64,000 nucleotides of DNA, taken from the IMG/VR virus record IMGVR_UViG_3300027972_000007, positions 96,001 through 160,000 of that record, one strand, 5' to 3'. A program made the position numbers. How positions within the stretch are numbered: position 1 is the first letter of the stretch; every line of letters starts with the position of its first letter. Positions 11,943-17,900 of this stretch are shown piece after piece. Origin of the DNA: a virus.

Positions 11943-14900
11943 TTATTTTATTTTTAATAAAATGTCGCATTTATTGAGAGGCCAAATTTCTTTACAAACA
12001 TTTGAAAGTCCTGTTTCGCAATTTGTTCCATCTATCCAAACTTCATAACTTTTTCCTGTATCTTCATCTATTTCAGGTAAATTTTTTACATATTCCTTTA
12101 ACTGTTTTATGGTTAATCCATTTTCATTAACTAATTTTTCATGTTTTTTGATAATAGAAACATTTTTTAAAATTGTAAAAAATTTCTGACCAAGAAAATC
12201 AACTTTTGTTACTGTTTTTAAATCGTCTCCAAAATTTCTTAAAACAAAATGTTCAAATTCATTTTCTGGGTATATTTCTATCGAATTTTCTACAAATAAT
12301 TTATTTAATTCGCCGTTATGAAATGTAACTTTCATGTATCATTCCTTTCATAAACAATATTTCTTAACTAAATATAAAAATTTATCTGGCAATTTTTTAT
12401 AACTTTTTTGAAATACTTCAGGCATTTCTCTAACAATTTCTTTTACTTCATATGGAGCTTTTTTATACCATTTTCTTAACTCTCTAACTGAAGAAATAAA
12501 ATATAGATATGCATTCATTTCTTGTATTTCTTTATTTATTTTAAATGGCAAATTATATTTTTTTATTAAATCAATTACTCTTTTCTCGCAATCCAATTCC
12601 AATAATATATCTGTATCGATCATTAAATCAATTTCTTTTTTAGTAAAATTCTTTCCAGCGAGCCAATCATCACTATTATATTGTCTCGAAATTTTATCAT
12701 AATACTTCCAAATTTTATTCTTTTCTTTCCATTGCAAAAAATGACAATATTCATGAATAAAATTTTTATACCACCGTAATACTGGTTTTCTAGTTCCTAT
12801 AGTTAGAGTTTTTGCGTCGTCATCCCAACAAGCACTAGATTTTATACCGTTTTCGACAATAATTTTTTCTTTATTTTCAAAAATAACTTTACAATTATTT
12901 GTTAAAATATCAATTAAAATATGGCCTAAAAAGAATTTTTTATAAAAAGCGTCGAGGGATTTATTTTTCATAATTAATAATTTTCAAATAAATAATCTAC
13001 TTCAAAATGACATGAATTAACATCTAAATTATACAGATTCTTCGTACTAATTACAAAATTATTTATAAACTTTTCGTTTAATGACTTTAATGAATAATCT
13101 TCTTTATTCCCACATACATTTTTAAAAACTGTTTGCGTTAAATTATTTGGTATTGATAGTGTTTTTGCTTTTTCAAAAAACAATATTTTTTCATTAAAAT
13201 TCCATTTTAACTGATGCATACCTGATTCTAATGTATTTGGATTATTAAAAGATATTCTTTTTAAAATATTTTTCAATAAAATTGTTGTATAAATATGAGT
13301 ATTAATACATGAAGGATACGACCAATCTGAATATTCAATTTTGCTATCTATTAAATATTGTTTCCAATTCCACGAATATGCCTGTTGATTACTATTAATT
13401 GAATGATATGTTTCAAAATATCTTGGAGGATCTGAATGTGTTTTGGAAGGGTATGAATAATTTAATGTTGGATGCATTCTTAATGATATACAATGTAATT
13501 TATCAAATTTTAAAAAATCTAAAAAACCAGAAATAGGAAAATTGCGTATAATAACTTCATCATCTACTAAAATGAGTGAATATTGTTCTTTAATATTATT
13601 TACATAATTTCTAAAATCATTAACAAAATTATTTTCGTTAATCCAATTTAAATTTGGATATTTAGATATAATTTTATCATAACCAATTTTAAAATAATTA
13701 TCAGAATATTTATATAAAATTCCTATATTTTTTAATTCTGTAAAATTATCATAAATTGATCTCAGCAATAAATCGAGCTGGCATGCACGATCTTTAGAAA
13801 AAATTAAACAATTTAACATTATTTTTTACCTTTATGATGTTGCGGTTGGAATGCCAAATAAAATACAAAATACTGACGATATAACCAACAAACAAAAACT
13901 CTATCACTCGCATCTTTTGCCGTGGTAAAGCCTGCATTTGTTGCGCGATTTAGGAGGTTGCCTCCATAATTTCAGCGGTGCGGGGCTTACGGCTATATAA
14001 GGGTGGCCGGATTCATACGCCAGCACGCCTTCCCGACTTCGAGCATATAGCAACCCCTGGCAGCCGTCAACCCTAATGCTGTCTATCGCACAGCCTATAA
14101 TCATAAAAGCAACCTCTTATTTCGCGCAACGACTGGCTATGCCTGAAGTTGCCGCTTTACAATATCTAACATAGCTTTCGCGCCTGCCATATACCATCGT
14201 ACTAACAGCGGATCATTATTTTTTCGCAAACCACCGGATAATTCTTCCTTATATTTGCTGAATAACGGCAATTTTAGGCATGTTTTGTTGGTGGATGGTT
14301 TATGGCATTCCTTAATGTAAGCACGAATGTACTTCCACGCTTCGGTTTGCCAACCATACAGTTTCGGTGGTAACATCGGACTATCACACACACTATCCAT
14401 AACACAACAGGCATGTTCAATATTTGTATAAATTACAGATTCATTCATTCGTGCCTCCAATGTAAAATTGCCAAAACTTTTCCGAGCGATTCTTTGGCAC
14501 ACTGAAGCATCTCACCTATAGTAATATTAGAAGCAGGCTCAAAAGCCAGTTGCTCATAATACCCACGATATGAATGCGGCGAGTTAAACCCATTTGGAAC
14601 AACAAGGTCGGCTTCCTCTTGTTCGAGACGAGAAATTAAACTTTGTAAATCCATGTTTCTGTTCCTTTCTTGGCGCGGCATATAACTTAAAAAGTCAAGG
14701 CTATTGCGCCTAACGTTCTCAGCAACGGGTGCTGGAAACGCCTATAATAAAATCTAATCATTAATATCCTGCGTTTCTGGCATCCCTTGCTGTGTTGTGC
14801 GAAGTTTGCGATGATTCCTTAATTTAGCCACCGCATAATCGTATGTATCGCACTTATCAACTTCAAAAATCTTACATGGAAGCGTACACATTTTTTGGAT

Positions 14901-17900
14901 GGGGCACTTTTGGCATAAAGAAACAAATGGCATAATACCTCCCTGCGGTGGCCTACTTATATATACTCATCGCAAATTTTGCACAACGTCCGACAAATGG
15001 TGAAGTTTTTGTACTCAAAAATTTGCGGGTACTCCCCACCATTTGTTTGTTGTACGAAGTTAATTGGCGACTCCGCTTTCTTCTGCCGCCACATCTTCGA
15101 CGAACTCCGCCGAAGCGTCAGGATTTTTTTCAAGCTGCTTGATAGCGTTACAGAGTTGCTCTTTGCCAATAGCCAACTGGAAACCAATACGCGCTTCGGT
15201 CAAATTGTGCCTTGCATTTTCGAGAACTTCCAAAACCGATAGAGACATAACCGATCCTTTCTTTGTGGCGGCCTATAATAAAGACTCACCAATTAATTTT
15301 GTACAACGTTCTTCGCTACTGGTGCTGTTTGTGTGGACACTCGCCCACGTAAATACACGCCAGTTTATCACCAACATTGCCTGTTGAATGCTCACACTCC
15401 GCACTATTGAGAGCACAAATGGCATCCATAGCGCTGTTGTGCGATATAAAATTTTTTTCAACAAGTATTAATGCTTCTGTAACCTCTATTGAGTGTGGAA
15501 AAGGTATTGAATTTAATATTATATCATAAGCATCTTTATTAGTCATATAATCTCCAGAAAAAATTTTATTGCGTACAACGTTCACCGCACTGCGCGAAGT
15601 TGCGCTAAAACTGCATTAAAATCATCATATTGAGCTAATGTTAATTTATCAGACAACTGTTGTTGTAAAGAAATTATTCACCGTTCAATAAAAGCAATTT
15701 TGTTGCTGCGGTTGTTGGCTGTGCCCAGCCCACCTGCTACACCCCCGCTGTGCTGCGCTTCAATGTTTCCTTCTTGCCGGGCGATCTTCCAATCTTTTTC
15801 GTCAACAATAACGTGGCCTTCTGGTAAGTTTTTCTTAAACTCCATGCCCGGATGCCTGTGAAGAAACCCCACCGTATCATTTACTGGATACCCCAAATAT
15901 TCCTGCTTAAACACTTGCATAAAGTTCCTTTCTTTCGCCCGGCCTATAATCAGCGCAGCATTGCAGCCAACGGATTGCAAAGGCATGAAGTTAAGCCCTA
16001 TAAATAGGACAATAAATAACAGCTCCATGCCCTTTACAATTAAAACCATCCTTTTCACCAACAAAAAACTCGGAACATTCCTTATTATTACAAGGCTTAA
16101 TTTTATTCTTTGTCGTGTTGGCTGTGCCCTGCCCACCTGCTACGCCCCCGCTGTGCTGCGCTTCCACCTGCTCTTGTGCGGCGATCTTTTCTTGTATCAG
16201 TTTTGCTTTCCAAATTTCCAGAAGAGCAATAGATTCCGCAAAAGTATAATCACTCTTATAAACCTGCTGCCCATTAAATTCAACAATTGACATCGTTCTG
16301 GTCTTCATTTTTACTCCTCGCCGCACCTATAATCAGCGCAGCATTGCAGCCAACTATACAAAGTATGTAATAACTATATATGTATATCTATTTCTTCTTT
16401 TCATTATAACTCAATATATTATCAACATTTACATGCATTTCTTTTAACATTTTAATTGCTGCTTTTTCTAAAAAATATGATAATGAACCACAAGACTTTT
16501 TACAACCTAATTTTTTAGAATTTAAACAACAAGTTTCAGTTAATTTACTATTCCACATAATTGTTGTCGTTTTTTTATTTATCATATTTATAATATATAT
16601 TATAATAAGAAATAAGTCAAGATAAAAATAAATTATTTTCGGATTAATGACGCTATAATATCGTCATTTAAAATTTCTATCTTAACCATAGTTGTTGACA
16701 TTTCAACCCAATTAGCCTGTCCTGGTTGTATTATAACTGTTTTGCCAATATTAGTTTTCCATACGCCGGTAATAGAATAAGATTCATGAATGTGGCCACA
16801 TAATACTAATAATGGTTGAGTTTTTTCTATCCACTTATATATTGATTTCGAACCGACTCGTTTGCCATTAGAACAAACATCTAATTCCAATCCATGTGGT
16901 GGCTGGTGAATAGACATTATAGTTTTATTATCAACATTTATTTTATCTAAATCTTCTTCTATAGTTGTTCTCTCTCTAAAATATTTTTCTACGTCGTTTA
17001 TTATATAATAACCATTTTTATCAAAATCGCATGGCGTTCCAATATATGGTTCATTACATTTCCAACCAGAATAATCTAATTTGCATGCTGCTTTTAATCC
17101 GAACGGGTAATCTAATACATAAGGATACGATTTAAAATCGTATTCGCCATAATTAAAATATTTCATTTCGTCTAATAATTTACCATATTTTCTGAAATTT
17201 TCTTTCCAAACATACAAATCATCATTACCGAAAGATGTAAGAATTTCTATATCATTTCTTTTGCATGTTGTATAAAAATTCTTTAAAAATCCTTTAATAA
17301 ATTTCTTTTGAGTATTAAATATATCATTTCCTTTTGGCAATATATCTGCACCGAGATGAATTAAATTTATCTCATTTTCAATAGCAAAATTAAAAACATT
17401 TTCATAATGTTTTTCTTTGCCGTGCAAATCTGTAGCATATAAAAATTTCATAATTTTTTTAACAGATTATCCCATAACCAATTTTCTGGTACTGTATATT
17501 TTTTTGCTTCTTCAAAATTTTCCTTAACATACTCTAATTTTTCATTATAATCTTTTTCGCTAATATTTTTTAAAATAACATCTAATTCATCTAATGTTCG
17601 AAAATGATAAAAACCATCTAAATTAAAAAATTTACCGATACTTGGGCAACCCCAATAAATAGGAATTACTCCTGTAACAAAACAATCAATAATTTTTTCA
17701 GTAAAATAATAATCAAAACTTCCATTTTCAACTACTATTTGATAACGATAATCTTTCAAAGCTTCCAACTTATACTCAATCTCTTTATATCCTCTTCCGG
17801 CAATAAAATCAATTTTATCTTTAAACTTTTCTATTATTTGATGTCTCAAAATATGACCGTCAGTATGTTTTTTATTACTAAAAATAACAGATAAATTTTT

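Follow-up and report, generated by a model that had tools for sequence, protein, structure and literature searches.

Cassette array in the window

We have analyzed a GC-rich island in a viral genome, IMG/VR record IMGVR_UViG_3300027972_000007 (170,170 bp; 27.7% GC), which is built of small gene units resembling integron cassettes. The stretch of DNA analyzed, termed the window, comprises the 64,000 nucleotides (nt) at positions 96,001-160,000 of this record, and positions given without a prefix are those of the window. Among the genes of the record are those for a gp43-type DNA polymerase, an SbcC-type nuclease resembling gp46 (located within the window), a clamp-loader subunit and an RNA ligase, and the virus is therefore a deep-branching T4-like phage; its DNA polymerase is only ~32% identical to those of T4-like cyanophages. 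Across positions 13,900-16,350, GC content is 0.38-0.50, as opposed to 0.17-0.25 in the flanks, and this block holds six complete units and one degenerate unit, all on the minus strand (Table 1). An initial annotation of the window had proposed an integron-like array of raised GC content at this place, and its account of the array, its strand and the make-up of a unit from core, open reading frame (ORF), inverse core and palindrome was confirmed.

Each unit begins with GTTG or GTTA followed by variable bases and, in all units except the sixth, ends with the reverse complement of its own start. The inverted repeats that had been quoted for this arrangement are real, and each joins a GTTG start to the CAAC end of the same cassette (13935-13971/14099-14135, 15049-15073/15283-15307, 15436-15457/15558-15579, 14794-14814/14967-14987 and 16100-16124/16347-16371). 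An imperfect palindrome of 77-172 nt, referred to as the site, lies directly 3' in each complete unit, and units 1-6 hold ORFs of 59-105 amino acids (aa). The proposed count of seven cassettes stands, with the start of the sixth moved from 14,686 to 14,714 (GTTAGGCG). Of the six palindromes and one half site that had been described, the six were recovered, and positions 13,890-13,939 hold the remnant of a final one. The description of a short ORF in each cassette, and of 5' ends that in most cassettes mirror the cassette's own 3' end, is accurate for most units; unit 6, however, contains fused ORFs and mismatched ends, and unit 7 lacks a convincing ORF.

The sixth unit looks like two cassettes fused by deletion. 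Its first ORF, c6a, matches just the first half of phrog_12889, and the c6a stop overlaps the start of the second ORF, c6b, with no palindrome between them. The body of c6b forms a separate cassette with a different palindrome in four other contigs, and it is this independent existence, together with the overlap, from which the apparent fusion follows. In cassette 3 the 5' half is AT-rich. Cassettes 1 and 2 have in common a 49-nt stretch of 96% identity (15713-15761 and 16116-16164). This stretch runs across the inverse core and is translated into one and the same peptide, EAQHSGGVAGG.GTAN, in the two ORFs; translation therefore extends into part of the putative recombination site.

The motifs TTATAGGC, AACTTCR.RCA and ACGTTG.. 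are concentrated in the island and hardly present in the remainder of the 170-kb genome, and each TTATAGGC/T motif lies either upstream of a ribosome binding site (RBS) or within the preceding palindrome. A cassette detector (described below) run over the whole genome gave matches confined to the island, plus one likely chance match. Scanning the island against Rfam returned chance-level matches only, a Pfam scan of the window's 8 ORFs gave nothing significant, and the island nucleotide sequence had no match among the cultured phages in INPHARED. Searches of IMG/VR with flanking proteins found no relatives of the window phage. Two further sequences (L001 and L002) are 100% identical copies of the same phage and are therefore uninformative on array variability. 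Other GC-rich islands (0.38-0.48) occur in the record at G000:C1 positions 1-600, 2600-4000, 34000-38000, 57000-59000 and 168200-170000, and are devoid of cassette motifs.

Table 1. Positions of the cassette array and its parts in the window
Feature	Position	Strand	Remarks
Whole cassette array / GC-rich island	13890..16354	minus	start coincides with a GTTG core not preceded by a palindrome; degenerate palindrome at its end
Cassette 1	15972..16354	minus	core GTTGGCTG at 16354-16347; inverse core CAGCCAAC ends at 16117
Cassette 1 ORF	15991-16308	minus	105 aa, Cys-rich
Site 1	15964-16124	minus	161 nt; codes for the C-terminus of the cassette 1 ORF
Cassette 2	15580..15971	minus	core and leader as in cassette 1; ORF 15678-15920, 80 aa
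Site 2	15572-15721	minus	150 nt
Cassette 3	15308..15579	minus	core GTTGTACG; ORF 15316-15546, 76 aa
Site 3	15300-15443	minus	144 nt; traversed by the cassette 3 ORF
Cassette 4	14988..15307	minus	core GTTGTACA; ORF 15060-15248, 62 aa
Site 4	14980-15056	minus	77 nt
Cassette 5	14715..14987	minus	core GTTGTGCA; ORF 14754-14933, 59 aa, Cys-rich
Site 5	14707-14801	minus	95 nt; hairpin type X
Cassette 6, composite	14131..14714	minus	core GTTAGGCG; two ORFs
Cassette 6 ORF c6a	14445-14654	minus	truncated; phrog_12889
Cassette 6 ORF c6b	14137-14448	minus	103 aa; body recurs in 5 other contexts
Site 6	14123-14294	minus	172 nt
Cassette 7	13940..14130	minus	core GTTGCGCG; matching inverse core CGCGCAAC at 13947-13940; 37-nt end complementarity
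Terminal palindrome remnant	13890..13939	minus	reaches the GTTGGTT core where AT-rich phage DNA begins
Promoter-like TTATAGGC/T motifs	14093..16332	minus	motif matches; first bases 16332, 15949, 15278, 14747 and 14100

Spread of the site family

Relatives of the array were reached through one ORF of unit 6, which led to a 721-bp metagenome contig (L003). This contig holds a shorter relative of the ORF between different neighbours, followed by the palindrome that trails unit 5 in the window. The palindrome after unit 5 is designated hairpin type X, and an exact 23-mer from it was used as a probe. The 23-mer has 0 matches in 185,579 prokaryote genomes and is present in three further IMG/VR records, and the hairpin X word is present in 47 metagenome contigs, five of these being chance matches. 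A second pattern search yielded five more viral records. The carrier set comprises nine IMG/VR records (G000-G008, G000 being the window phage) and ~40 metagenome contigs, and site 5 is 91-96% identical to its counterparts in more than 40 other phage contigs. The distribution of this one hairpin type, in viral and metagenome contigs only, argues against routine exchange with bacterial integrons. The five stray matches are probably due to chance: on four large contigs that are not phage-like (L052, L055, L072 and L077), a 21-mer of hairpin X lies within a conserved protein-coding gene, and the fifth (L087) is unrelated sequence.

Four of the viral records are complete, with terminal repeats (G002, 264 kb; G004, 213 kb; G005, 254 kb; G008, 98 kb), and an array of about 22 cassettes is found in the 86-kb record G003. 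As in the window, the G003 array is a GC-rich block in AT-richer DNA whose start coincides with a GTTG core that follows no palindrome; these 8 kb have no nucleotide match among the cultured phages in INPHARED. The window phage has 77 ORFs in common with G002 (at ~40% identity), 6 with G003 and 0 with G001.

With a rule combining the core and complementarity between a cassette's own ends, the detector identified 126 cassettes at 38 loci. Reversed sequences gave 0-2 matches per genome, and real genomes were matched almost only at arrays. At every one of the 38 loci all cassettes lie on a single strand, and a shufflon-like inversion model was rejected on this account. A lone cassette occurs in G003 far from its array (L008:729-1025, or G003:C1:20729-21025). 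Its 61-nt leader and 44-nt trailer are 95-98% identical to those of an array cassette (G003:46564-47072), its ORF is unrelated, and an HNH endonuclease gene lies ~400 nt past it.

Anatomy and folding of the site

Twenty-nine sites from four phages, aligned on two anchors, follow a common plan. It opens with CNNNCAAC, an A, a 6-bp stem and further stems, often around AAAT/TGCCG ... CGGCA/CTWTC, and on the 3' side continues with the second half of the 6-bp stem, a 4-5 nt RRAC-like spacer (variants AAAC, GGAC, AGAC, GAAC and AACC), GTTGNNNN and MAAT. An A directly follows CAAC in 125/126. All 6 positions of the 6-bp stem are paired in 87/120 sites, with 47 different hexamers, compared with 1/126 in shuffled controls. 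The stem is thus maintained by compensatory change, as is the case for the L''/L' stem of attC. The spacers flanking it are asymmetric, with 1 nt on one side (94/110) and 4-5 nt on the other (106/110). The distance between inverse core and core is 36-151 nt, or 52-167 nt with the boxes included.

AAC and GTT do not vary between cores, and the fourth position is C/G (CAAC/GTTG); this invariance is partly built in, as the detector required these cores. The remaining core positions break the purine/pyrimidine rule RYYYAAC/GTTRRRY (e.g. GTTGTAC and GTTGGCT). Beyond the core, 9-14 further nt of the cassette start pair with the sequence before the cassette's own inverse core, across a conserved internal loop that sets AAAT opposite ACATC or ACTTC. 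The total complementarity between a cassette's own two ends amounts to 20-25 nt and includes a conserved A.C mismatch.

The hairpins fold stably (z-scores -3 to -5.6), and their imperfections are strand-specific. Counting one representative for each of 33 hairpin families, stem mismatches on the coding strand are 39 of the A.C type vs 5 G.T, with 22/33 families leaning to A.C and one to G.T, and the bottom strand folds more stably in 24/33. Since an A.C mismatch on the coding strand is a G.T pair on the other, the bottom strand, antisense to the genes, is by this pattern the strand selected to fold. The bias speaks to selection for folding, not to recombination itself. Antisense folding rules out mRNA terminators or processing stalks as its cause and fits the bottom-strand rule of attC. 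No T-run was found 3' of the hairpins. Neither sigma-70 promoters (8 vs 8.8 +/- 3.1 expected) nor intrinsic terminators (1 vs 2.8 +/- 1.9 expected) are enriched in the island.

Cassettes as units of exchange

The initial annotation had proposed that the cassettes are shuffled. Comparison of cassette order between contigs, those of unrelated phages among them, bears this out, with identical cassettes found beside different neighbours and breakpoints at the GTT core. For hairpin X, 35 distinct contexts were counted, in which its partners fall into 17 classes upstream and 31 downstream; six of the upstream classes are joined to 2-5 different downstream partners, and only two downstream classes to two upstream partners. 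Pairs of cassettes with a common start resemble each other over the upstream 60 nt in 9% of cases, and pairs with a common end resemble each other in the palindrome that comes next in 54%. In the 60 pairs whose common start is preceded by unrelated DNA, identity ends 2-5 nt before the G of GTT in 51/60. Taken together, the unequal sharing and the position of the break show that the palindrome mostly travels with the upstream ORF, and that the main joint lies between palindrome and GTT, as in integrons.

The four variable bases of the core match the other end of their own cassette at 3.5/4, a score that is partly built in because the inverse core was located by complementarity to the start. They match the adjacent core at 1.96/4 and random pairs at 1.85/4, and this second comparison is free of the locating bias. 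A simple local hairpin would be expected to give the opposite pattern, with the adjacent match above the own-end match. The own-end match, together with a random-level match to the adjacent core, therefore calls for units whose two ends had at one time been joined to each other and that were then opened at the core.

Cassettes also fall into end-classes, whose members have a 45-60 nt leader and a ~45 nt trailer in common, with matched arms and unrelated ORFs inside. One class of nine has eight different interiors, a class of eight has seven, and a class of five has five.

Cargo and flanking genes

The 122 cassette ORFs (40-208 aa) form 88 families. Few carry Pfam domains, among which are DUF3850, RyR, Cro/C1 helix-turn-helix, DUF551, Lar restriction alleviation and zinc ribbons. 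When 95 ORFs were scanned (88 family representatives and seven from the window), 46 PHROG families were matched, in agreement with the initial description of the cargo as small phage-type proteins. A box of the form [AT]TA[GT]G[CG][CG] is found at most 110 nt upstream of the start codon in 58/122 ORFs, compared with 22/122 in ORF bodies. GTTG was considered as a -35 box and rejected, as its spacing to the TATAGG box differs between cassettes. The genes flanking the metagenome loci are phage genes and include NAD salvage functions, LAGLIDADG endonucleases, radical SAM enzymes, Mom and methylases; among the 25 families listed (of 30 matched) there was no PF00589.

Search for the recombinase

The absence of an integrase gene, first remarked on for the window, extends to the whole record, in which PF00589 (tyrosine recombinase) has no match; none was found at E<=1 in any of the nine viral records, four of them complete. 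In G000-G003, PF00239 (serine recombinase) and PF00078 (reverse transcriptase) are absent, and PF01797 (Y1 transposase) was matched only in a separate IS200/IS605 copy of G003. That copy (L028; G003:C1:55882-57269) is a complete IS200/IS605-type unit with Y1 TnpA and TnpB, ~5 kb past the G003 array. No conserved gene adjoins the arrays across carriers. We infer from these searches that the moving activity would be supplied in trans or belong to an unrecognised family.

An HNH endonuclease gene lies beside a TnpB (OrfB_IS605) gene in the window phage (G000:C1:58864-61151), and the two have counterparts of 58% and 53% identity in G003, an otherwise unrelated phage in which the cassette array is immediately followed by a TnpB gene (51,276-52,535). 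These TnpB and HNH genes were considered as the mover and rejected: TnpB is missing from the complete G002 genome, and neither gene is linked to arrays.

Interpretation

We consider that the island is probably a mobile gene cassette array of integron-like build, part of a pool that has to date turned up in phage and phage-like contigs alone. A cassette opens with a core of GTTG and four variable nt, after which come a short leader (in many cases carrying a TAT..TAGGC promoter-like box and an RBS), a single small ORF and a trailer; it closes with an inverse core (four variable nt and CAAC) that is complementary to its own start, and with an imperfect palindrome. A structure-specific recombinase would act on the folded bottom strand: cutting at the AAC/GTT core, it would free the cassette, probably as a circle, and then reinsert it. 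This enzyme would act in trans. The host may provide it, the leading candidate being a tyrosine recombinase of the IntI or Xer kind, or it may be an unrecognised phage function. From the shared pool, the GC-rich array would have passed to the T4-like phage.

A number of findings weigh against this picture, or complicate it. Besides the partly built-in own-end score, the metagenome contigs were ascertained via one hairpin type, and the predicted empty site has 0 matches in metagenome and viral collections. Among 30 pairs of cassettes with the same end and different palindromes, 18 break directly after CAAC-A, and breaks also occur inside cassettes, between adapters and ORF; a single crossover at GTT therefore does not explain everything. 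Finally, the design of the site departs from that of attC. The central spacers measure 1 nt vs 4-5 nt, where those of attC measure about 5 vs 6, and the bulges are placed on the 5' arm of the bottom strand, where attC has them on the 3' arm.

The cassette-platform reading is supported, and there is a real chance of a new mechanism. A more specific version of it, which we put forward tentatively and hold to be possible, is that phages keep an integron analogue of their own. Matched adapters and a folded bottom-strand site would make any small ORF portable, and the mover would be an unrecognised structure-specific activity, distinct from classical IntI and encoded elsewhere than next to the array.

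By what route large lytic phages acquire and exchange the many small ORFan genes of their variable regions is an old question, for which the options so far have been blind illegitimate recombination or homology at regulatory repeats. Here, one sequence-defined, structure-bearing format is common to a T4-like phage, to complete phages of 98-264 kb (three of them >200 kb) and to unrelated phages; the same sites serve more than 88 ORF families, and the joints are exact. The shared format and exact joints therefore make the question testable. If the reading is true, cassettes moved between unrelated phages would constitute a shared accessory-gene pool, the integron concept would be widened to a different site geometry with no integrase in cis, and the arrays would offer a ready catalogue of candidate host-takeover and anti-defence genes. 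A literature search found no description of this site family.

Alternative explanations

The best-surviving alternative, which we nevertheless regard as unlikely, is that the units are bacterial integron cassettes with genuine attC sites, derived from a host chromosomal integron and moved by host IntI; the array would then be a classical cluster of attC sites lacking integron-integrases (CALIN). This is the reading of the initial annotation, which had inferred a platform for gene capture and shuffling that uses a host or distant IntI. The AAC/GTT inverse cores, the order of ORF then palindrome, site lengths of 52-167 nt, own-end complementarity and bottom-strand folding all fit attC, and integrase-less attC clusters are on record from 17 phages, including virulent ones, with five of six tested sites recombined by IntI1 (Qi et al. 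2023, PMC9892861). The 'Myoviridae' CALIN of that study, MW202573, is a 34.6-kb phage. The genomic distribution points the other way: the hairpin X probe that is missing from 185,579 prokaryote genomes is present in phage contigs, the cargo matches PHROG families, and the flanks are phage genes. About half of the cassettes have a promoter-like box of their own, and their ends are complementary over 20-25 nt within matched adapters that are reused around unrelated ORFs. To our knowledge, neither such end complementarity nor reused matched adapters have been known for integron cassettes.

Site geometry also counts against genuine attC. As a reference we used a 60-nt sequence of the aadA1 attC, which was matched by 1,962 plasmid records at >=99% identity (three listed at 100%) and in R100 lies directly 3' of aadA1 on the gene's strand. 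When the bottom strand of this verified site is folded, each arm carries a partly paired spacer and the single-base bulges fall on the 3' arm. In the phage sites, by contrast, the 3' arm is continuous, and a 3-4-nt spacer bulge as well as the single-base bulges fall on the 5' arm.

A second alternative requires no dedicated enzyme, and we judge it quite improbable. Under it, the palindromes are regulatory cassettes of the Promoter early Stem-Loop (PeSL) type that act as hot spots for the phage's general recombination and repair, namely UvsX-type strand exchange, the gp46/47 hairpin nuclease and endonuclease VII. T4-type phages are described as shuffling ORFans by homology at promoter/stem-loop motifs, without a recombinase gene and with mini-circles, for which a role as vectors was proposed (Arbiol et al. 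2010, PMC2839356; Comeau et al. 2014, PMC4122927). An SbcC-type nuclease resembling gp46 is encoded in the window, searches of the carrier records revealed no recombinase gene, breaks fall on both sides of the palindrome and within conserved adapters, and hairpin X provides portable homology of 80-95 nt at 91-96% identity. However, the joints stay exact at the core when the palindromes upstream bear no relation to each other, and homology therefore cannot guide them. Own-end complementarity requires an intermediate, circular or equivalent to a circle, that is always cut at one position. Further points against the PeSL model are the lack of enrichment of sigma-70 promoters and terminators, the selection of the antisense strand for folding, and the presence of carriers that share almost no genes with the T4-like ones.

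That the elements act at the RNA level alone, as terminators, RNase III stalks or mRNA panhandles around ORFs with no DNA mobility, is suggested by the complementary ends that enclose each ORF ahead of a stable hairpin, but is highly improbable given sense-strand A.C mismatches (antisense G.T) that an mRNA stem would not tolerate, hairpins with no T-run after them, and a cassette order that differs between contigs with breaks at the cores.

Comparison with known systems

The mobile cassette array favoured here can be set beside several known systems. It does not classify as a self-mobile element, for which a Y1 HUH, serine, tyrosine or reverse transcriptase enzyme of its own would be expected in the carrier; in the records searched for each family, the separate IS copy of G003 was the sole match. 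The likeness to PeSL lies in the shuffling of ORFans within hyperplastic regions, in repeated intergenic stem-loops and in the lack of a recombinase gene. PeSL differs in having a consensus sigma-70 promoter plus a terminator and in exchanging by homology at variable points, neither of which is seen here; the phage cassettes instead show fixed core joints, matched ends, antisense folding and a GC content foreign to the phage.

Modules bounded by pdif sites, which are 28-bp double-stranded dif-like sequences with a conserved XerD arm and are moved at XerC/D sites on Acinetobacter plasmids, offer another comparison. They too are bounded by inversely oriented short sites, stacked in rows and dependent on a host-supplied enzyme. 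Unlike them, the phage cassettes have no XerD arm that could be seen, and their sites are long folded palindromes.

Sedentary chromosomal integrons share with the phage arrays their length (22 or more units in G003), the small number of similar site types and the small ORFs of unknown function. In the Vibrio superintegron, with its Vibrio cholerae repeat (VCR) sites, the arrays adjoin intI and attI and belong to one bacterial lineage, whereas the phage site types are common to unrelated phages that have no intI.

Integron arrays and CALINs in general, including the CALINs reported from phages, complete the comparison. Both they and the phage arrays are made of co-oriented single-ORF units, each with an imperfect palindrome bounded by inverse cores (..AAC / GTT..) and joined at GTT. 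In both, the cassette start complements its own inverse core, the bottom strand is favoured, ORFs often enter the site and the cargo is mostly ORFan; as in CALINs, no integrase is nearby. Site lengths are also comparable, at ~57-141 nt for attC, 52-167 nt for the family as a whole and 77-172 nt in the window. The initial comparison of the palindromes to attC is thus upheld for gene orientation, folding strand, joint position, length and covariation, and fails for spacer design and bulge placement. Beyond geometry, the phage cassettes differ from those of integrons in the 20-25 nt complementarity of their ends, the conserved A.C mismatch, the reuse of leader and trailer adapters and the many promoter-like boxes, and their sites come only from phage contigs.

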